DNA of 64,000 nt from an uncultured Phycisphaerales bacterium (GCA_963754335.1 CAVWFQ010000004.1:205866-269865); one strand, 5' to 3'. Numbered from the stretch's first letter, positions 19,433-33,044 are shown. The notes: generated by a model from the sequence alone, not told the origin. A program made the numbers and translations.

Positions 19433-19641
19433 ATGATGCGGACTATTGTCGCGACAATGGCGTCGGGGCACCTCATGAATTAACGTGTCCCGGCCGCAGG
19501 CGACGGGGCGGGCCGTTGCCCAAGCTTCTTGAGGTTATCGCACATTCAGTGAAGATCCAGGCAACCAATCAAGTCGCGACGCTTCAGCCTCCATCCGTCG
19601 CCCTTCCGGGCCGGCCGAGCCTCGTGCCGGCCGCACCCCCG

Positions 19642-21421
19642 ATGCTGTCCATCTCGGCGAGCATCGCCGCGCTGTTGCTGCTCTTTCTGGCCTACCGCAT
19701 TGGCTGGGACATGCCGGCCCGATATCACGTTTACAATTTTCATCCGCACGCAGCGCCTGATCGCTGTGGCGGTAGCGTTCGGCGCAATGTTGTTCGATCC
19801 GCTGCGAAAGCGAATTCTCCAGTTCTTCGAGTCTGCCCGGCGTCCTTCATGCGCACCGCCTGGGTCATCGCCGGGTTGGCGTCGCTCATCTCCGGCGTCT
19901 ATCTCTACGCGACGGCGCGCCGGCAGGGGACGGAATTCATTCTCTATTTTCACGATGAACACAGCTTCATGCTGCAATTGCGGGCCCTGGCGAGCGGCCG
20001 GCTCTGGCTTCCGCCGATCCCAGCGCCGCTACGCGATTTTGTCGAGAGCTTTAACATGCTGGTCTATCCGAAATACGGATCGATCTATTTTCCGGGTACC
20101 GCATTGCTCTATGCGCCTTTCATTGCCGTCGGTCTCCCCTGGTGGTTTGGGCCGCTGGTGACGATGTCGCTCGCGATCGGATTTTTCTACCTGCTCGTAA
20201 CGCAAATGATCGACGGCGTCGCCGGCCTGCTGGCGATCCTGATCATGCTCGCCTGCCCGCAGATTCGCGTCGAATCGCTCATGGTTCTTTCGCAGCCGGC
20301 GCAAATCCTTTTTGAAATCCTCCTGATGCTTGCGTATGTCGCCTGGCGGCGCGACCAGGCGTTTCGCTGGGCGGTGGCGATCGGTTTCTTTGCCGGCGGG
20401 GCGGGCACGATCCGTCCCGCCGACTGCGCTCTGCCTGGTCGTTCCGATCGGGATCGCCATGCTGCTCGATCTGCGCGGCCCTGAACTGCGTCGCGCGATC
20501 GTCACTTTTATCGTTGTCGGACTGTCCGCCTCCCCATTTCTTGCACTCCAAGCCTGGCAGAATGTCGGAATGACCGGGAGATTGAGCGAATTCCCCAGCG
20601 ACTATTACGTCGAGCGGACTTACCCCGCTTCGATGATGGGGTTCCACCCCATCGACTGGGCCCGCGTGCCCGTTCCCGCATTGCTTGAAAAGCGCGCCAG
20701 CAACGAAATGTTCGTCAATGGCGAATATGCGCGACACACGCCCGCCAACATCTGGAGTGAATGGCGCAATCTTCGGCTGCACTTCACCGTGCTCGGCATT
20801 ACTTCCAATCTGATCCTTCTGCTGCTTTTGCCGCTGGGGTTGCTGGGGCTCGTCAACCGGCCGCGAATTGTCTTCATCGCCTCGATGTTCCTCTTTTTTG
20901 CCTTTTACTCCACTTACGTTTTTTATTTCGTTCATTACGCGGTGACCATCGTTCCCATGGTCGTTTTTCTGACGCTGCTGGGCGGCGAAACACTGGCCCG
21001 GCTGTTCCCGGCCGATTGGAGAAGCGGGGCGTGGGCGGTGTTTTCGGCGGGAATCTCGCTCGCCGCCATCGCCGCATTGCCCGAGTTCAATCCAGATCAG
21101 CACGACGGTTATCGCACGCAGGAGCTGAGCCAAGTTGAGCACACCCTCGCGAGACTGCCGGCGGCCGAGCGGTCCGTCGTCCTCTTTCGCTTCGCTCCAG
21201 GCTGCGACCCCGGCGAGGACCCGGTCTACAACACTGACACGGCTTGGCCGGAAGATTCGCGACTTCTCCGATGCCATGACCTGGGCGATTCACGCGACCG
21301 CGAACTCTTCAATTACCTCGCGGCCCACAATCAGGCCGACCGCATTGCTTACCGATACGATCGCGGATCCAGAAAGCTCATCCGGCTCGGGGCTATTCGC
21401 GACCTGACAAACCGATCGTGA
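19642..21421 (+). CDS. polytopic membrane glycosyltransferase (GT39/ArnT/PMT-like), frameshifted near 20420
   Basis: Multiple predicted TM helices; two overlapping ORFs (19516..20484 and 20330..21421) join as ...GGAGTIRP|TALCLVVPIGIAMLL... A large C-terminal periplasmic domain is typical of dolichyl-phosphate-mannose-type transferases. Start uncertain. Confidence 0.55.
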
Positions 21422-22142: not shown

Positions 22143-22337
22143 TCAAGGATGATCGTGATCATGATCATGGTCATCGTGATCATGGTCATGGTCGTGATCA
22201 TGCCAATGGTCATCATCGTGGTGACCGTGCCAGCAGCCGGTCACCCCGGCGAATAAGCCGGCGGTAATCGCCGCGGCCAAAAACAGGCGTGCGAATCGAA
22301 TGGGGCCAATGAGAGAAGTCAACGATTTCATCATCAA
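22143..22337 (-). CDS. small His/Asp-repeat lipoprotein (putative metal-binding)
   Basis: Strong ribosome-binding site (AAGGAAAGGA) with 7-nt spacing. Signal peptide with lipobox-like VTGC, then a mature tail CWHGHHDDDHWHDHDHDHDHDDHDHDHDHP. Confidence 0.65.
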   Translation of the reverse strand: MMMKSLTSLIGPIRFARLFLAAAITAGLFAGVTGCWHGHHDDDHWHDHDHDHDHDDHDHDHDHP

Positions 22338-22484: not shown

Positions 22485-22892
22485 CTATCCACCGACTGTT
22501 TCAAAGTGGCCGGCGCAGACGAGCTGTTGGTGCGTCACCAGGTCGAAATGGCCCGGCTCGACACACACGCTTTCATGGAAGACGCGGCGGCCGCGGAAAA
22601 TGTCGCGGACTTCGTACCGATCCGGCGTCCAGACGCGCTCTGTTACCGTCTGATAGACCGGAGCAACCCAGACCTGCGTGGGCGGAGCGACGCAGACCGG
22701 CGCGGGCGTCACGACGACCGGAAGTCCAACCCGAACGTCAACGCATCCGACGTCCACGCGCAGATGCGGCCGGTCGTGATGATGCGCCTGGGCGGCGGCC
22801 GGAACCGATCCGACTGCGCCGATGGCCAGCGCGGCTTTCATTGCAGTGGGGGCAACGCATTTCCTGATCAGTCCTGTCAGAATCGCTTTCAT
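22485..22892 (-). CDS. secreted Cys/His-containing hypothetical protein
   Basis: AGGAG ribosome-binding site; signal peptide MKAALAIGAVGSVPAAAQA; mature part begins AHHHDRPH and carries four Cys. Co-oriented with the His-rich lipoprotein just downstream. Confidence 0.55.
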   Translation of the reverse strand: MKAILTGLIRKCVAPTAMKAALAIGAVGSVPAAAQAHHHDRPHLRVDVGCVDVRVGLPVVVTPAPVCVAPPTQVWVAPVYQTVTERVWTPDRYEVRDIFRGRRVFHESVCVEPGHFDLVTHQQLVCAGHFETVGG

Positions 22893-23001
22893 GGCAGTCT
22901 CCTGAAAAATTTCCTTCGTACTGGAGATTGGACACGTGCCCGATTCCGAGGTTGGCTCAGCCGTTCGGCATAGGTATAAACTTGGGGCTCAAAATCACCC
23001 C

Positions 23002-24318
23002 ATGCAAAACCAATACGTCGAACGCGTTGTGGATCTGACCGATTCTTCGGTGAATCGAATTCACAACATGACCGTCGAGGAAGCTCGCGGGCGGTTGCTC
23101 GGAGGACCGGTAGCCGTTTGCCAGATCGATGGCTCGTTTGCACTGGTCGCGCGCGAAGGAAAGCGCGTCTGCCTCGCCCGCTCGCTCGATCGGCCGCTTC
23201 GCTATTTCCTGGCCAAGCGCCGCGAGGGGCCGGCGCTGATCGTCGCCGACCGGATCGACGCGATCGCGCTGGCTCGACGCCGAAGGACTCGGCGGCCAAT
23301 TTCACCCCGCCTACACGCGGATGGTCCCCGCGCATTATCTGGTCGAGATTCAGCTCGTCGGTTGCCCCGATCCGGATCCGACCTACACACGTTTCTTCAC
23401 GCCAACGCGAAATGCACTGCCGGCGGATCTGGATCTGATCGGCTCGGCCTATATCGGCGCGCTGGCCGACGAAGTCTCCAAGTGGCTGCTGAGCATTCCG
23501 AGGCGCGAGCCGATCGGTGTTTGCTTCTCCGGCGGAATCGACAGCGGGGCTGTCTTCCTTGTCACATATCACGTCCTGGGCAAACTCGGCATGAATCTCG
23601 CACGCCTGAAGGCGTTCACGCTCGATTGCGGAAATGGGCCGGATCTCGTCCAGGCGCGACGTTTTCTAGAGTCTCTTGATTTGCAGTTGTTCCTTGAAGA
23701 AATCTCCGTCGACGAAAATGCGCTGGACCCCGCCGAGGCGGTTCGCGTCACCGAGGATTACAAGCCACTCGACGTGCAGTGCGCCGTCATGGGACTTGCA
23801 CTGGCGCGCGGCATCCGGCGCGCTACCCGGATTGGCGATTCCTTCTCGACGGGGACGGCGGCGACGAAAACCTGAAAGATTACCCGGTCGAAGAAAATCC
23901 CGAGCTGACCATCCGCAGCGTCGTGAACAATCTGATGCTCTATCAGGAAGGCTGGGGCGTTGGAAAGATCAAGCACTCGCTCACGTACAGCGGCGGATTG
24001 AGTCGCTCATATACGAGAACGTATGCTCCCGCGCGTAAGTTCAATTTCGATGGATTCAGTCCGTTCACCCGGCCGGCGGTGATCGAAGTGGCCGAGGCCA
24101 TTCCTTTCATTGCGATGACGGACTACGAACTGCCGCGGCTCTACTCACTGAAGGGAGAAATCGTATCCCGCGGCGTCGCGGCCGTGACCGGCCTGCGCAT
24201 GCCGGTTTTTCCCAAGCGGCGTTTTCAACATGGCGCGCTGCCGGCGGAGCGGATGGAGCAACGACTGAGCGTGCGGGAAGCCGACTATCGGCGGCAGTTC
24301 CACAATCTCTATTCGTGA
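23002..24318 (+). CDS. asparagine-synthetase-like ATP pyrophosphatase (PP-loop, AsnB C-terminal domain family) without obvious glutaminase Cys, two frameshifts (~23272, ~23820)
   Basis: PP-loop SGGIDS (GVCFSGGIDSGAV) and the AsnB-like LLDGDGGDENLKDY block. Three ORFs (22936..23679, 23321..23875, 23779..24318) join as IALA|LDAEGLGG... and ...ARGIRR|RYPDWRFLLDGDGGDE. Confidence 0.65.
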
Positions 24319-24327
24319 AGTGATTCC

Positions 24328-25382
24328 ATGCCCGCCAGCGACGTTTATCCGCAGTCGAGCCGTGAGCGGGATCGCTGGATCGTTGCCCTTCGCCCACAGG
24401 GCAATGCGGCGCTTGATCCCCATCGCGCTTATGCGGCGATTGCAGAACAGGAACCGGACGAAGCGGGGCGACTTGCAACGGTCGCGACTATTTTTCTCAC
24501 CAATCGCGAATGTCCGTGGCGATGCGTGATGTGCGATCTGTGGCGCAACACGCTCCCCACGACCGTTCCCCGCGGCGCGATCGTCGAGCAAATCGATGTG
24601 GCGCTCAGGAGTCTTCCGCCGGTGCAGCAGGTGAAGCTGTACAACGCCGGCAGCTTCTTTGATCCGGGTGCGATTCCGCCGGCTGAATACGCTGCGATCG
24701 CCGAGCGGATGAATCGATTCAAGCGGCTCGTTGTGGAATGCCACCCGCGCTCGTCGGCCCGGCTGCGGTGGAATTTCGCGAGCGATTGGAAAATTGCGAA
24801 CTCGAAATCGCCATGGGGCTGGAGACCGCTCACCCGGGGGCGCTTGAGCGGCTCAATAAGAGAATGAACGTCGATCAGTTCAAGAAGGCAGCTGAATTCT
24901 TGCGCGAGAACGGGATTGCGCTTCGCGGCTTTCTCATGATCCATCCGCCATTTATCGCGATCGAAGAACAGGCGAAATGGCTCGATCGCTCGATCGCTGT
25001 CGCCTTTGAGTGTGGTGCATCGGTGATCTCTCTTGTGCCGACAAGAGGAGGAAACGGCGCTATGGAGCAACTTGCGGCGGCGGGGCAGTTTACGCCGCCG
25101 ACGTTGGCGCAGATCGAAGATCTGTTTGAAAATGGGCTGGGGCAGAGAGACGGCTTGGGGGTTCGCGGCCAGGTTGACACGGGCGAGACGCCCAAGCCAC
25201 GAGTGGGGAATTCCGAGCCTGGCCAGTACTCCGGTGACCGCCGGGTCTTCGTCGATCTCTGGGATCTGGAGCGGTTTTCCAAATGCCTTCACTGCTTCCC
25301 AGGAAGGCGCGATCGGCTGGCCAGAATGAATCTCGACCAGCGCGGACTGCCGCGAACTGCCTGTGAGGTTTGCAACGAGTGA
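24328..25382 (+). CDS. radical SAM enzyme (CxxxCxxC) with C-terminal CxxC...CxxC pair, frameshifted near 24745
   Basis: TNRECPWRCVMCDLW gives the canonical CX3CX2C motif. Downstream radical-SAM core features (GSFFD, LEIAMGLETAHPGALERLNKRMNV, LRGFLMIHPP). C-terminal CLHCFP...ACEVC. Sits 9 nt after the AsnB-like stop. Confidence 0.7.
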
Positions 25383-25408
25383 AAGTCGGGAACACGGGTT
25401 GAAAACCC

Positions 25409-26798
25409 GTGCCACTTTTTTTCATGAACACCCATTACGACATCGCGGTGGTCGGCTCCGGCTTTGCCGGATCACTCGTTGCGATGGTCGCGCGGCGTCT
25501 GGGCCGGACCGTCATTCTCATTGAGCGCGGAAACCATCCGCGTTTTGCAATTGGAGAATCTTCCACGCCCCTGGCGAATCTGCTGCTCGAGGAACTGGCG
25601 GTTCGCTACGATCTCCCGCGTCTGCTTCCGTTTTGCAAGTGGGGGACATGGCAACGGACTTATCCACGAATCGCGGTCGGGCTCAAGCGTGGCTTCAGCT
25701 TTTACCACCATAATCTGGGGGAGCGGTTCGTCCCTCTGCCGAATCGGAGCAACCAGTTGCTCGTGGCCGCCAGCCCGCATGACGGCATCGGCGACACACA
25801 CTGGTATCGACCCGATTTCGATCAGTTTCTTGTCGAGGAGGCGAAGTCGCTGGGCGTCGAATATCAAGACCATGTCAATCTTGAGCGCGCTGAGTTCCGC
25901 CCGGGTGGCGCTTGCCTCCGCGGCCAACGTAACAGTGAGCAGATAGAGATCAGGGCGGATTTTGTGGTGGACGCGAGCGGGCCGCGTGGCTTTCTGCAGC
26001 GTGCGTTGTCGTTGCCGGAGCGTTCATTTCATGATTATCCAGCCACCGAATCGCTCTTTGCTCATTTCCGCGAGGTGAGGCAGATGGACTCGGGCGGGGA
26101 TTTCGGGACGATCGGCCAATCGCCACCATTTTCCCCGGACGACGCTGCGGTTCATCACGTTTTCGACGGCGGATGGGTCTGGGTGCTCCGTTTCAACAAT
26201 GGGATCACCAGCGCCGGCGTCGCCGCCGCGCCGGCGGCGGCACGACGACTGAAACTCGCGGAGGGCGCTTTGGCCTGGGATCGACTCCTGGCGGAATTGC
26301 CCACTCTGGCCGAGCTATTTCGCGACGCCAGTCCCGTCACGCCATTCACGTACGCGCCGCGCCTTCCGTTTCGCACCGGCGCTGCTGCCGGCGATCGCTG
26401 GGCGATGCTTCCCTCCGCCGCCGGCATCGTCGATCCGCTGCTTTCCACGGGGTTCCCTTTGACTCTGTTCGGCATTCTCCGACTGGCTCAAATTCTCGAT
26501 GAAGCCTGGACGCGTCCGTCGGAGATGCGCGAAAAGGCTTGATGATTACGCTGACAAATCCCTCAGGGAACTCGATGCCGCCGCGCACCTCGTCGGTGCG
26601 CTTTATGCGACAATGCACAACTTTCCGCTCTTTGCGCGTCTGACCCTCCTGTATTTCGCTGCAGCCAGTTTCTCCGAAACGTCGCGCCGTCTGGGTCGGG
26701 TACGAACCGGGTCATTTCTGTTGCACGATGATGAACGCTTTGGCCCGATGCTCAGCGCTGCTGCGCTCAGGCGAGAGATGTGGCTGGGGACCGCGTAA
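25409..26798 (+). CDS. flavin-dependent halogenase-family oxidoreductase (Trp_halogenase-like), frameshifted near 26520
   Basis: FAD motif YDIAVVGSGFAGS, AIGESSTP resembling halogenase GxGEATIP, and GWVWVLRF resembling the WxWxIP motif. The C-terminal ~95 aa continue in ORF 26499..26798. Confidence 0.65.
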
Positions 26799-26980
26799 TG
26801 ACCGCGAATTTAATGGAAAAGGTTCTGCTCGCCATTGCGCCCATCGACGTGGCGGGGCTCACTGACGTCTCGCGCAAGAACTGGTATCCGGTCGATAGCG
26901 AAGACCTGTACCGGTCGACTGGAAAGGTGAACGCGAGTCGGGCGGAGATTGCTGCGCTTCTGAATCGTTGCGGCTTTTGA
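26798..26980 (+). CDS. small ORF (60 aa) translationally coupled to the halogenase-like gene
   Basis: A TAATG stop/start overlap with the upstream gene. Sequence MTANLMEKVLLAIAPIDVAGLTDVSRKNWYPVDSEDLYRSTGKVNASRAEIAALLNRCGF; no family recognised. Confidence 0.4.
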   Translation: MTANLMEKVLLAIAPIDVAGLTDVSRKNWYPVDSEDLYRSTGKVNASRAEIAALLNRCGF

Positions 26981-27023
26981 TCGAACCAAATGTAGCGACT
27001 CCGGTTCGCCCCGATGTCGCAAG

Positions 27024-27410
27024 TCATTCGCCAACTCTCGAAGCGTGGTCGCCGGCAGTGAACGGGCCAAACGTTTCGAAGGATCCGTCCGCGTGAACGC
27101 TGACGAAACGATAGTCTTTGGCAAGGGCCAACGCCTTCTCCAAATAAGGCTTCAGTATTTGGAGATCTCCGAAGCGGGTTAGATGTGTACGCAATTCCAC
27201 GACGGAGAGCGGTAGCCGTTCAAGATGATGCTCATGTCGAATATTCTTGTCCGTAGTCACCATTACCGCATAAGGCACCGTGGCGGCGCGGGCAATGAGT
27301 TCGCCGTTGGCCAATTGCTGGTAACCCACGTCAACGGCATGTTCTACCTCATGCCCAGGGAACAACTGCTTTGCTCGATACGGAACGCAATTGTCGAGAA
27401 GAACTTTCAA
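27024..27410 (-). CDS. DUF5615 family PIN-like protein (putative toxin)
   Basis: Characteristic N-terminus MKVLLDNCVP; 128 aa; overlaps the upstream DUF433 gene by 4 nt (ATGA). Confidence 0.7.
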   Translation of the reverse strand: MKVLLDNCVPYRAKQLFPGHEVEHAVDVGYQQLANGELIARAATVPYAVMVTTDKNIRHEHHLERLPLSVVELRTHLTRFGDLQILKPYLEKALALAKDYRFVSVHADGSFETFGPFTAGDHASRVGE

Positions 27411-27694
27411 AGCTTACGCAAGCTGTTGAGAAGACCGGACGCAGACAAGTCGATGACGGCCGCGACCTGTTCGCGGGTAACCGGAGGAAAGTCTGCCAAA
27501 AAGACGTTTAGGTTGTCTCCTGAGGCAAGGTGGTCAAAGAGTGCTTGGACTGGAACCCGGCTTCCCTTAAAACAGGGCTCGCCATGCATTCGTGCCTTAT
27601 CCACCGAGATGTAGGGCGCCAGGGGGCTGTTCGGCGGGATTAACTCCCCAGTTTCTTGTTGCTCGACGGAATTTATCGTGGTGGACATCGGCAA
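27407..27694 (-). CDS. DUF433 domain protein (putative antitoxin partner of DUF5615)
   Basis: DUF433 core GEPCFKGSRVPVQALFDHLASGDNLNVFLADFP; classic DUF433-DUF5615 gene pair. Confidence 0.7.
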   Translation of the reverse strand: MPMSTTINSVEQQETGELIPPNSPLAPYISVDKARMHGEPCFKGSRVPVQALFDHLASGDNLNVFLADFPPVTREQVAAVIDLSASGLLNSLRKL

Positions 27695-27766
27695 AAGCCT
27701 CCGACCAATATATTAGCAACAACGCCTTTAGGAATCAGCGATGACCTCAATTCCTCGAATGTACCC

Positions 27767-29129
27767 TTATTGCGGGAAAACTGCTCGATACAGCAACTCG
27801 ACCGGGTGAACCGCGCGGACGGGCACATTGTCGGCATCCGCCTGCGACTGAATCTGCATCGCGCAGCCGACATTCCCCGTCGCGCAAATCGCCGCGCCGG
27901 TGCTGGCGATGTTCTTCACTTTCCGCTCGGCAAGGCTGGCCGACATTTCCGGCTCGGTCAGGTTGTAGGTTCCGGCGGCGCCGCAGCACAAATCGCTCTC
28001 CGGCAATGGAACCAGTTTCAGTCCGGGAATCGCTGACAGAAGCTGGCGGGGCGGCGCGGTGACGCGCTGCGCGTGCGCGAGATGGCACGCATCGTGATAG
28101 GTAACGGTTTGGTCGACGGGATGCGTTAGAAGTGTTCGTCACGCCCAATTCCAGCAAAACCTCACTGATATCCCGGACTTTCGACGCGAAGACGCGGGCG
28201 CGATCGGCGTATTCGGGATCGTCACGCAGCAGATGATCGTATTCACGCAGCATCGAACCGCAGCCGGAAATGGTCGTTGTGATGAAATCGACAGGCGGTC
28301 CGTCCTTCGGCAAGAAGGCGTCGATGTTTTTTCGGGCGAATTGCATTGCGGGTGCCGGAAATCCGCTGTGTTGATGAAGCGCGCCGCAACAAGTCTGAGA
28401 TCGGAGAGGAAGGACATCGGCGCCGCAGGCGGCGAGAAGCTCAGCCGCCTGGCGGTTGACTTTGTCGAACATGACCGAGCCGATGCAGCCGGTGAAGAAA
28501 CCGATTCTTTTCGGGACGGCGGGGGCATTCGCGGCGGCCTGATTTCGCGAAGCGGGCAAGCCGCGAAGCGGCGCGGGCCACAATGCGCCGGTTGCGGGGA
28601 GCATTTGCTCCATCTTGCGAAACTGAAGCGGAAGCAGTCGAAACAGGCCGATCGAACGAAATAGCGAATAGATCCCCAGCTTCTGGAGCACGCGTGCCGG
28701 GAGCAGCGCGAGCTTCAGGCGCGTCGGATAGACGAATACATTAAAAAAGAGCCAGCGCATCAGCCGGCCCTGGACGCCGATGGGCTGCGTCGCGGCGAGT
28801 CGCGCACGCGTCTCTTCGATCAGTTCGTGATAGACCACGCCGCTGGGGCAGGCGGTTTCGCAACCGCGGCAATCGAGGCAGAGATCCAGATGGCGGCGGA
28901 CGGAGGCGGTCGGCTCGATGACGCCGTCCGCCAGTCCGCGCATGAGCTGAATTCTGCCGCGCGGCGAATCTCCCTCCTGCCCGGTCTGCACGAAGGTGGG
29001 GCAGGCGGGCAGGCATAAGCCGCAATGGACGCAGCTCAGCGCGCGATCGTAGGTGCGCGGATCCAGCGGCAAGGGGGTGATGCTGCGTGCGGATGAAGAT
29101 GCGACGGTCGGGTTGGCCGGTGTGCTCAA
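27767..29129 (-). CDS. glcF: glycolate oxidase iron-sulfur subunit GlcF-like (Fe-S + CCG domains), frameshifted near 28120
   Basis: Two 4Fe-4S motifs (CVHCGLCLPACPTF; CLDCRGCETACPSG) and CCG-domain residues (FFTGC, SQTCCG, ESDLCCGAAG). C-terminus in ORF 27767..28006. Confidence 0.75.
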
Positions 29130-30720: not shown

Positions 30721-31126
30721 CGCTCCGTTCATTGTTTGCAAAATCAGTTGCAGTGCCTGCAGGATCTGCTCCTGAGTCTGCTGCTGAACCGCCTCGCGCT
30801 GCGCTACGCGACCGTCGAGCGCGGCCCCGGACAAAGCCGGCCCCACCGTCATCAAAGTCGATCCGAGGATTTTTCCAACTGGCGTCTTGGCGAAGATGTC
30901 GCCGTAGCCGACCGACAGACACGTCGAGCAATAAACCATCGCATCCCAGAGATCGTTCACCTTCGGATTATGGTTTTTCTCCGCCGCGTAGAAGAGCAGC
31001 GAGCTGACCGCGACGGCGGCGGCAGTATTGCGCCGGCGAGTCGGTCAGCTTCGCCGCCCATTCCTCGATCGAAAACGATTCGGGAATCGGCAGTCCCAGG
31101 GCGATCAAATCTTCTTTCAGTGACAT
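30661..31126 (-). CDS. small 2TM K+ channel-like protein (TVGYGD-type selectivity filter), probable frameshift near 31030
   Basis: LFYAAEKNHNPKVNDLWDAMVYCSTCLSVGYGDIFAKTPVGKILGSTLMTVG gives an S5-end/pore-helix/filter/TM2 arrangement. ATG 31126 lies 3 nt after the flotillin stop. The N-terminal 30 aa are in a different frame from the pore region. The C-terminal tail is encoded by the repeat element. Confidence 0.5.
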
Positions 31127-31129
31127 GGT

Positions 31130-33044
31130 CTAGACCTTCCGATTCGCTTTGACTTCGGCATGAGCCGGTGCAGCGGAAGACGCCGGGGCGGCGCCTGCCA
31201 CTGATCCGTTTCCCGTTCCGGCCAAGCCGGGCGACGAGCCATCGTCGGTCTTGGGGGAGAGTTGCGTCACCACGGCTGACGTCACCCTGTTGAGCAGTTC
31301 GTGGCCGGCGGGGGGAAGCGTTCGCATCAAGCCCGTCGATCGAGGCGCCGATGCTGGCGGCTTTCATGAACTGCTGAGCCATGCTGGCCATCGTCGCCGG
31401 GTCGGCGAAGATCTGCATTTGCGCCTTCTCGAACATCGTTCCCATCGACTGGGCCGCCTGCACGCGCACATCCCGGTCGGCGTCGATGCGCAGCTTCTCG
31501 AGCTCGAATTTCAAAGCCGCGTCTTCGAATTCCTGCTTGTTGGAGAGGCTTTGGCGCTCGACTTCGACGCGGGCCTGTTCGACGCCGACGCGCTCGCGCT
31601 CGACGTTCACATCGACCATCTTGATGGCCCGTTCGCCTTCGGCCCGCTTGACCGATGCCTGGGAGTCGCCGTCTGCGAGCTTCAACTTCGCCTGGAATTG
31701 CAGATCCGCGGCCTGTCGTTCGGCCTCGGCTTTCTTGACGGCCATATAGGCCTGCACATCGGCGACGGTCTCCTCGCGCATCTTGTTTTCCTGGATGACC
31801 TGCTTGGCTGCGATCAATTTCTTGCTGGCCTCGCGGTCGGCTTCGCTGGTCACCTGCACAGTGATCACCCTTTGCTTCGCTGATTCGCGTTCGGATTCGG
31901 CCACCAGCACGCCGGCTTGCGCCGTGGCGCGCTCCTGTTCCTTCTGTGCGACGGCTACTTCCTTGGCCCGTTCGGCCACTTCGATAGCCTGCTTCTTCTG
32001 AATTTCGGACGTCTCCTGCTCGCGAAGCTTCGCGATGAGGGCCAGTTTCCTGGCGATGTTCGCCTGTTCGACCGTGAGCGCTCGCTGCACTTCGGTGGTT
32101 TCGACCGCCTGCGTCTTTTCGATCTCGCGCCGGGCCACGGCCTCGTCCTGCTCGATCTTGAATGACGCCACCTCGCGTTCGCGGGCGGCGCGGACATTGG
32201 CGACTTTCATTTTCTGGTCGGCCTCGAATTCCGCCTGATCGCGCTGGAGCTCAAGGATTTTCTTGGTCGTAAAGACGTTTTTCTCCGCCACGGCCCGTTC
32301 CGCCTCGCGCTCGATCACGTTGCGTTCGATGCGGGCCTTCTGGGTAATTTCGGCGATTTTGCGAAGGCCCTGGGCGTCGAAAACGTTTCGCTCCTGCAAA
32401 GCGGCCGGGTCGGTCTGGTCGAGCGACGATATGGTGACCGATTCGAGCGTCAGACCGTTGCTCGCCAGATCGTGGGTCACGATCTCCTGGACGGCGCTGG
32501 CGAATTCATCGCGCTTGGCATGGAGTTCGACCAGATCCTTCGTGGCGGCCACGGTGCGCAATGCGCTGACCAGCTTTTCCTGGACCAGCTCGCTCACCGC
32601 GTCGGGCTGCACGTTGCGTCCTCCAAGCGAACGGGCCGCCTGGAGGATATGGTCGGCGTTTGCGTCCACCTTGATGTAAAACTCCGCCGACAGATCGACG
32701 CGGAGATTGTCGCGTGTGATGAGCGCATGAGGTCCGCGGCGTTCGACGTTCAGACGCATCGTCTCCAGCGAAACGGGGATGACGTGATGAACGACAGGCA
32801 AAACGATCGTTCCGCCATCCCGGTACACGCCTACCCCGCCCATGCCGGTGCGGACGAAAGCCATGTTGGCTGACGCCTTGCGGTAGAGGTTCTTGACGAC
32901 GGCCATGATTGCCGCGAAGAACATCACCACGCATCCGATGCAGAGAAGTACGAATTTCCCGCTGGGCGCCATGGATCCCATCGGCGCTACCCACGGACCA
33001 ATCGCTAACGCTGCCCCGATGATGAAGAAAAGGATGATGAGCAT
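31130..33044 (-). CDS. floT: flotillin-family SPFH/band-7 protein (FloT/YqiK-like), frameshift in C6 homopolymer near 31335
   Basis: N-terminal membrane anchor and an SPFH domain (GGVGVYRDGGTIVLPVVHHVIPVSLETMRLNVE). A long E/A/K/Q-rich coiled coil follows. Removing one C from cccccc (31331-31336) restores the C-terminus ...DANASPAGHELLNRVTSAVVTQL... Confidence 0.85.

Follow-up and report, generated by a model that had tools for sequence, protein, structure and literature searches.

An uncultured Phycisphaerales bacterium is the source of a 64,000-nucleotide (nt) stretch of DNA (GCA_963754335.1, CAVWFQ010000004.1:205866-269865), here called the window. It contains genes for an asparagine-synthetase-like (AsnB-like) ligase, a radical S-adenosylmethionine (SAM) enzyme and a flavin-dependent halogenase-type protein, one directly after the other. 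What would a cell make with such a trio? A first-pass annotation of the same DNA had left the answer between a modified peptide and a tailored small molecule. We find that the trio is a real conserved operon, made up of divergent members of three known superfamilies. Its most likely role is to make or tailor a small aromatic metabolite or, possibly, a compound of nucleobase type; a ribosomal peptide is the less likely product. With regard to the chemistry, we tentatively favour a short small-molecule pathway in which a ligation is followed by a radical cut and a halogenation.

A conserved operon of three genes

An open reading frame (ORF) map and a six-frame translation of positions 22900-27050 placed three co-directional enzyme genes on the + strand at ~23002-26980. 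According to the ORF list and the translation, each of them is split by frame changes in the window DNA. The frame junctions were placed by tblastn with intact homologues, and joining the frames yielded three repaired proteins:

23002..24318, + strand: AsnB-like PP-loop ATP-pyrophosphatase/amide ligase, 439 amino acids (aa) after repair, shifts at ~23266 and ~23818
24328..25382, + strand: radical-SAM enzyme, 351 aa after repair, one shift at ~24746
25424..26980, + strand: flavin-dependent halogenase-family enzyme, 518 aa after repair, shifts at ~26530 and ~26792

The first-pass annotation had described four co-directional genes in one operon. The single operon and the common direction stand, but the genes are three. 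The first gene starts at 23002 and not at 22984. The first junction indeed measures 9 nt (stop at 24318, ATG at 24328). The second had been given as ~27 nt; it is 41 nt from the ATG at 25424, which the homologues favour, or 26 nt from the GTG at 25409.

The supposed fourth gene, a coupled 60-aa ORF (26798-26980), is rejected as a separate gene or precursor peptide, because it encodes the conserved C-terminal end of the flavoenzyme. Over 100 homologues of 515–535 aa cover 99–100% of the 518-aa reconstruction, and a motif found throughout the family, R-R-N-W-Y-P, lies in the last 60 residues; its Trp occurs in 120 of 120 sequences. The N-terminal 372 and the C-terminal 60 residues of the flavoenzyme share one frame, and the ~85 residues between them are displaced by two compensating indels. 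The TAATG "overlap" that seemed to couple the two ORFs is a product of the second of these indels, the fifth frameshift of the cassette.

We then compared related loci. The order AsnB-like, radical SAM, flavoenzyme was found in 65 of 81 fetched loci (two duplicate records removed); most of the others hold two neighbouring genes or a contig end. The usual gaps are ~6 nt and ~12 nt, the latter compared with 41 nt in the window. In a collection with one genome per species, at least 577 matches were confirmed, among the first 600 pattern matches listed. The loci come from Acidobacteriota, Verrucomicrobiota, the Planctomycetota genus Singulisphaera, Methylomirabilota, Gemmatimonadota, Acetobacteraceae and the Armatimonadota-type lineages Chthonomonadales, Capsulimonadaceae and Abditibacteriaceae, and span at least eight phyla; protein matches add Poribacteria and Rhodothermia. 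Soil and aquatic bacteria of many phyla thus carry the trio, in hundreds of species.

For each protein, over 7,000 of the 8,000 candidates scored (clustered at 90% identity) are relatives at E <= 0.001. Database relatives are ~50–60% identical to the radical-SAM enzyme and the flavoprotein and 72–75% identical to the AsnB-like protein. Over 51 complete loci, mean pairwise identity is 68% for the AsnB-like protein, 58% for the radical-SAM enzyme and 56% for the flavoprotein. The three pairwise-identity matrices of these loci correlate (r = 0.58–0.74), which indicates that the three genes travel together. The closest relative, L001 (GCA_038240605.1), also has the downstream GlcF/GlcE genes.

Profile searches bore out the family assignments made before (PF00733, a RaSEA-like radical-SAM enzyme and PF04820), and all motifs quoted for them are present, including SGGIDS, DGDGGDE, the CX3CX2C and CxxC...CxxC cysteines and IGESSTP. 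No curated family in Pfam or NCBIfam names any of the three proteins, all NCBIfam matches being far under their cut-offs, and literature searches found no description of the trio; the earlier failure to match it to a described pathway therefore holds. The ammosamide cluster shares the same keywords, but its architecture is different, and it was rejected. The first-pass annotation had also considered that the enzymes might be housekeeping proteins in an unconserved order. Instead, they belong to none of AsnB, QueE, HemW or UbiH, and the order is strongly conserved. The superfamilies are well known, yet their combination has neither a curated family nor a literature, despite its presence in hundreds of species of soil-dominating phyla.

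Three enzymes and a possible pathway

The first protein matches PF00733 in a Pfam profile search and has the SGGxDS PP-loop, the acidic xGxGxDE motif and the AsnB-type fold of the AsnB superfamily. Its SGGIDS and DGDGGDE motifs align to human ASNS and E. coli AsnB. The N-terminus reads MQNQYVERV (family consensus MxxYxERVV) and lacks the Cys1 glutaminase nucleophile of class II enzymes, as had been noticed at first sight. Since the ligase has no glutaminase, some other nitrogen nucleophile would be needed. AsnB proper, the glutamine-dependent asparagine synthetase, is rejected because Cys1 is missing and the curated scores are far under the cut-offs: the full-length homologue P0243 reaches 51.9 bits against 267.1 for TIGR01536 and 31.6 against 499 for NF006949.

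Conservation in the AsnB-like protein peaks at residues ~289-335 (ENLKDYPxEENPELTIRSVVNNLMLYQEGWGVGxIKHSLTYSGGLSRSY). This segment also has the worst confidence in the AlphaFold model (predicted local distance difference test, pLDDT, 27–36), which suggests that it may become ordered only upon binding of a partner or substrate.

In the second protein, the CX3CX2C motif typical of the radical-SAM superfamily (CPWRCVMC; C62, C66, C69) lies in a partial TIM barrel and is invariant among homologues. A helical tail carries a C-terminal CxxC(x22)CxxC element (C320, C323, C346, C349), of which all four cysteines are near-invariant. The closest curated family is RaSEA (TIGR01210; 94.8 bits, E = 5.6e-27, cut-off 212.15), followed by weaker matches to TIGR01212 (MnmL/YtqA) and ArsL; the best structural match is queuine lyase. 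A QueE/HemW-type enzyme was rejected, as the curated models score far under their cut-offs. The conserved neighbours of the gene (~8 kb on each side per locus) are those for the AsnB-like protein and the flavoenzyme, not ArcS, although no dedicated arcS/ArcTGT search was made.

The radical-SAM enzyme of the window also contains an in-frame insertion of ~25 residues (…GQRDGLGVRGQVDTGETPKPRVGNSEPGQYSGD…; residues ~272-300, window ~25130-25230) between the barrel and the Cys-rich tail. None of the 20 aligned homologues has it, not even the 67–72% identical P0121, and it is specific to this lineage.

The third protein matches PF04820, PF01266 and PF01494 (Pfam). A close homologue, P0002, aligns over ~400 residues with PltM (phmmer, E = 1e-48) and with the tetracycline 7-halogenase CtcP (5.5e-41). 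The flavin adenine dinucleotide (FAD)-binding GxGxxG motif (GSGFAG), IGESSTP and GWVWVLRF are present, and the DPLLSTG motif is conserved in the family. Lys88 of GLKRGF is invariant (120 of 120 sequences) and lines up with the Lys of PltM GIKLGF (K87 in native numbering). The canonical WxWxIP motif is altered: the W-x-W core is kept, but the family reads W-[IV]-W-[VI]-L-[R/Q/H], with Leu in 120 of 120 sequences and Pro in one. Among the NCBIfam models, QhpG scores 75–81 bits (cut-off 240), while GoxB and LodB match the N-terminal FAD motif only. A UbiH-type hydroxylase was rejected, again with curated models far under their cut-offs. The flavoenzyme belongs to the PltM/CtcP-like family of flavin-dependent halogenases, as judged from its sequence, and halogenase activity is predicted for it. 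PltM and CtcP act on free phenolic substrates.

RaSEA-type removal of an amino-acid-derived group, the missing glutaminase and the kinship to PltM/CtcP are the reasons why we favour the sequence ligate, cut, halogenate. The AsnB-like enzyme, with its PP-loop and adenosine monophosphate (AMP)/Mg site intact and no glutaminase nucleophile, would adenylate a carboxylate and join it to an amine, perhaps that of an amino acid serving as nitrogen donor. The radical-SAM enzyme would then use its 5'-deoxyadenosyl radical to cut or rearrange a bond beside the ligated nitrogen and would release a primary amide or amine, in a manner resembling the ArcS-RaSEA pair. In the last step, the PltM/CtcP-like flavoenzyme, which keeps the catalytic lysine, would halogenate an electron-rich ring, or might hydroxylate it instead should the altered WxWxL-R motif matter.

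Several points weigh against this pathway. The order of the steps and the idea of a nitrogen donor are drawn by analogy, and the activities of the families are predictions. The identity of the AsnB-like proteins across phyla (see above) is unusually high for secondary metabolism and suggests a macromolecular partner or substrate. Of 120 members of the flavoenzyme family, 119 have another residue in place of the canonical WxWxIP proline, and the operon contains no flavin reductase gene. In addition, the exported FG-GAP/ASPIC proteins that recur as neighbours of the trio (see below) could point to a protein substrate. Small-molecule tailoring, the alternative that the first-pass annotation had kept beside a peptide, still fits best. 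With a PltM-like halogenase as its last enzyme, such a conserved pathway could be a widespread natural source of organohalogens; equally, the trio could be a route to a new cofactor.

Alternative readings and genomic setting

Could the substrate be a peptide or a protein? For a peptide made on the ribosome and modified after translation (RiPP), as considered in the first-pass annotation, a small ORF beside the operon should be the precursor. However, in 61–66 loci the 400 nt to either side of the trio contained no conserved small ORF; the sole downstream ORFs that appeared conserved are the ends of a convergent ASPIC gene. The Pfam search detected neither SPASM/twitch nor RiPP recognition element (RRE) domains in the radical-SAM enzyme, and PF13471 and PqqD-type families were missing among the neighbouring genes. 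In the related loci, none of protease, RRE, transporter and flavin reductase goes consistently with the trio; the first three had not been obvious in the first-pass annotation of the window either. PADLOC gave no match to an anti-phage defence system. The adjacent precursor with leader protease and RRE-type B protein that marks lasso peptide and other RiPP clusters is thus lacking, and nothing positive speaks for a RiPP.

Larger neighbours do recur. Within 8 kb of the trio, an RnfD/NqrB-like membrane-protein gene is present in 36 of 79 loci and FG-GAP/UnbV_ASPIC genes in 44 of 79, the latter usually with a ~1,170-aa protein of tetratricopeptide repeat (TPR)/FG-GAP/ASPIC type. This module occurs in three arrangements. 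It is convergent to the trio in most Acidobacteriota, two Verrucomicrobiia, Methylomirabilota, Gemmatimonadota and Acetobacteraceae, co-directional and downstream in Chthonomonadales, and co-directional and upstream with minimal gaps in Singulisphaera sp. PoT. In the latter, the TPR-ASPIC, ASPIC, RnfD-like, AsnB-like and radical-SAM genes adjoin and look like one operon, with no flavoenzyme gene nearby. Because the link between trio and module survives rearrangement across phyla, it is probably functional. Example loci with the module beside trio genes are:

L060, 349-8978
L021, 10608-16951
L082, 10574-16816
L056, 7725-13019
L003, 9875-17560

It is conceivable, though rather unlikely, that the trio modifies a protein or peptide encoded elsewhere. 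The enzymes might mature the neighbouring FG-GAP/ASPIC (CRTAC1-like) lipoproteins before export, resembling the action of QhpD/QhpG on QhpC, or they might install a lasso-like macrolactam together with a halogenated Trp or Tyr. Lasso cyclases are among the AsnB homologues, and QhpG, LodB and GoxB are among the NCBIfam matches of the flavoenzyme. The extreme conservation of the AsnB-like protein would fit such a substrate, as would the low model confidence of its most conserved segment, which is what one expects of a partner-binding region. The same holds for the tie to the TPR/FG-GAP/ASPIC and RnfD-like module in three arrangements and several phyla, with the apparent common operon in Singulisphaera. 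However, the missing precursor ORF and the lack of RRE, SPASM/twitch, leader protease and transporter argue against it, and the flavoenzyme is much nearer to PltM and CtcP than to the QhpG model. The ASPIC module is also missing from about half of the loci, and a search of the 64-kb window for it and its RnfD-like partner came back empty.

The recurrent module can also be accommodated without a protein substrate. The trio would then be the cytoplasmic arm of a larger system and would make a halogenated or hydroxylated amide small molecule (a cofactor, ligand or signal) for an envelope module consisting of the RnfD/NqrB-like protein and the TPR/FG-GAP/ASPIC beta-propellers. We regard this extension as a minority possibility. 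If true, it would describe a phylum-spanning system, with a conserved flavin-dependent halogenase in the dominant soil Acidobacteriota and Verrucomicrobiota.

A third class of substrate to be considered is RNA. The operon might install or remodel a modified tRNA or rRNA base, or a free 7-deazapurine-type nucleobase: the ligase would attach an amino acid, the radical-SAM enzyme would trim it, and the flavoenzyme would oxidise or halogenate the base. Modified tRNA bases are the substrates of both RaSEA and MnmL/YtqA, the two curated families to which the radical-SAM enzyme comes closest, and the structural match to queuine lyase points in the same direction. High conservation suits a universal macromolecular substrate, and no further pathway genes would be required nearby. 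However, all scores are well under the family cut-offs, no PUA, THUMP or TRAM RNA-binding domain was detected in the three proteins, and the distribution is patchy and phylum-biased, unlike that of core translation functions. Furthermore, we know of no halogenated or matching amide-bearing RNA nucleoside in bacteria. We therefore consider action on an RNA base improbable, and slightly more so than action on a protein.

The last explanation concerns the genes themselves. The tblastn placement with intact homologues gave five frameshifts in the 4-kb cassette, where four had been counted before. A public database protein of 372 aa (P0001) is identical to the truncated flavoenzyme ORF, so the frame errors are present in the deposited assembly. 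GCGC strings, not homopolymers, lie under four of the five shifts (23266, 23818, 24746, 26530; and 26792), compared with a background of 15% of window positions within 6 nt of a GCGC. The ORF list shows unrelated neighbouring genes of the window to be broken as well. There are no in-frame stops outside the shifts, identity to intact relatives is 65–88% throughout, and the repaired proteins match their homologues over the whole length. The GCGC bias, the broken unrelated genes and the end-to-end alignments lead us to read the shifts as artefacts; they look like assembly errors rather than gene decay, and the pattern hints at a systematic fault of long-read basecalling, with indels at a methylated GCGC-type motif. 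The trio genes are then probably intact in the organism. A decaying pseudogene cluster with real frameshifts and inactive genes, for which the crowding of five shifts within 4 kb and the truncated ORF of the deposited assembly might speak, is very improbable in view of the GCGC excess, the broken neighbours, the otherwise open frames and the two flavoenzyme shifts that compensate each other. In an assembly with such systematic GCGC indels, genes are split and false small ORFs are created.

Further split-looking genes in the window encode a membrane protein (19516-21421), GlcF (27747-29129) and a flotillin-like protein (30957-33044).

Two non-coding features accompany the operon:

22893..23001, + strand: upstream intergenic region between the divergent gene (22485-22892, - strand) and the AsnB-like start
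25393..25421, + strand: terminator-like hairpin (8-bp stem, 3-nt loop, then a T6 run) in the radical-SAM/flavoenzyme spacer

The first is presumably the promoter region of the operon; a sigma-70 consensus found no match in 22893..23001. Neither the window nor eight related loci gave an Rfam match to a riboswitch or to any other RNA element, which leaves no riboswitch as a clue to a ligand. Terminator-like sites in the region number 7 against a shuffled expectation of 5.5 and are therefore not above chance. The strong hairpin in the unusually long spacer may be a partial terminator or attenuator, perhaps lineage-specific, or a functionless chance match.

Directly upstream of the operon and divergent from it are the genes of two small exported proteins (22143-22337 and 22485-22892, both - strand). 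One of them, predicted to be a lipoprotein of 64 aa, has a long His/Asp repeat (HHDDDHWHDHDHDHDHDDHDHDHDH) that looks like a metal-binding tail. Neither is kept beside the trio in other loci. Directly downstream, two small genes of 128 aa and 95 aa overlap (27024-27694, - strand); they look like a toxin-antitoxin-type pair, presumably DUF5615/DUF433-like. The GlcF/GlcE-like genes that are syntenic with L001 follow beyond this pair.

Comparison with known systems

Of its solved relatives, the flavoenzyme matches the phloroglucinol halogenase PltM and the tetracycline 7-halogenase CtcP best. They have in common with it the GxGxxG motif, the Lys in G-[IL]-K-x-G-F, the W-x-W core and DPLxSxG. The differences are WxWxL-[RQH] in place of WxWxIP and, relative to PltM, a C-terminal part of ~115 residues with the invariant NWYP-type motif that does not align by sequence. 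The genomic partners differ from those in the plt and ctc clusters, being the AsnB-like ligase and the radical-SAM enzyme, and the use of halide by the trio is a prediction.

The maturation of exported quinoproteins by QhpD/QhpG resembles the trio in that a cytoplasmic radical-SAM enzyme is paired with a cytoplasmic flavoprotein of halogenase fold, and genes for exported proteins adjoin the trio in many genomes. In contrast to the Qhp system, the trio includes an AsnB-like ligase, a SPASM domain is missing from its radical-SAM enzyme, it is not accompanied by a gene for a small-subunit substrate, and the flavoenzyme stays far below the QhpG cut-off. A trio that serves the envelope module would be loosely comparable to pyrroloquinoline quinone (PQQ) and the periplasmic propeller quinoproteins.

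Of class II AsnB and its Cys1-less offshoots (beta-lactam synthetase, CarA, TsnB9 and the lasso cyclases), only residues ~165-295 are recognisable by sequence in the AsnB-like protein. At the position of AsnB Glu348 it has an Asp; beta-lactam synthetase carries a Tyr there. With its mean identity across phyla, the AsnB-like family is far more conserved than either AsnB or these offshoot families.

Among curated families, the radical-SAM enzyme comes nearest to ArcS-RaSEA and MnmL/YhcC/YtqA. In mnm5s2U synthesis, the MnmC step trims cmnm5U to nm5U. MnmL/YhcC radical-SAM enzymes are reported to stand in for the FAD-dependent MnmC in mnm5s2U synthesis (10.1101/2023.12.21.572861; 10.64898/2026.05.18.725915). 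RaSEA, in complex with ArcS, converts preQ0-Lys to G+, whereby the lysine is removed and an amidine is left; an amino acid is thus ligated and then removed by radical chemistry in complex with a partner enzyme (PMC11298593). The enzyme of the trio scores under half of the RaSEA cut-off. Its hosts are bacterial and those of RaSEA archaeal, its partner is an AsnB-type PP-loop enzyme and not ArcS, and compared with RaSEA and MnmL its family has a C-terminal CxxC...CxxC element of its own and no tRNA-binding domain. Despite these differences, the pairing of an AsnB-like with a RaSEA-like enzyme may be a second case in which an amino acid serves as nitrogen donor and is removed by radical chemistry.

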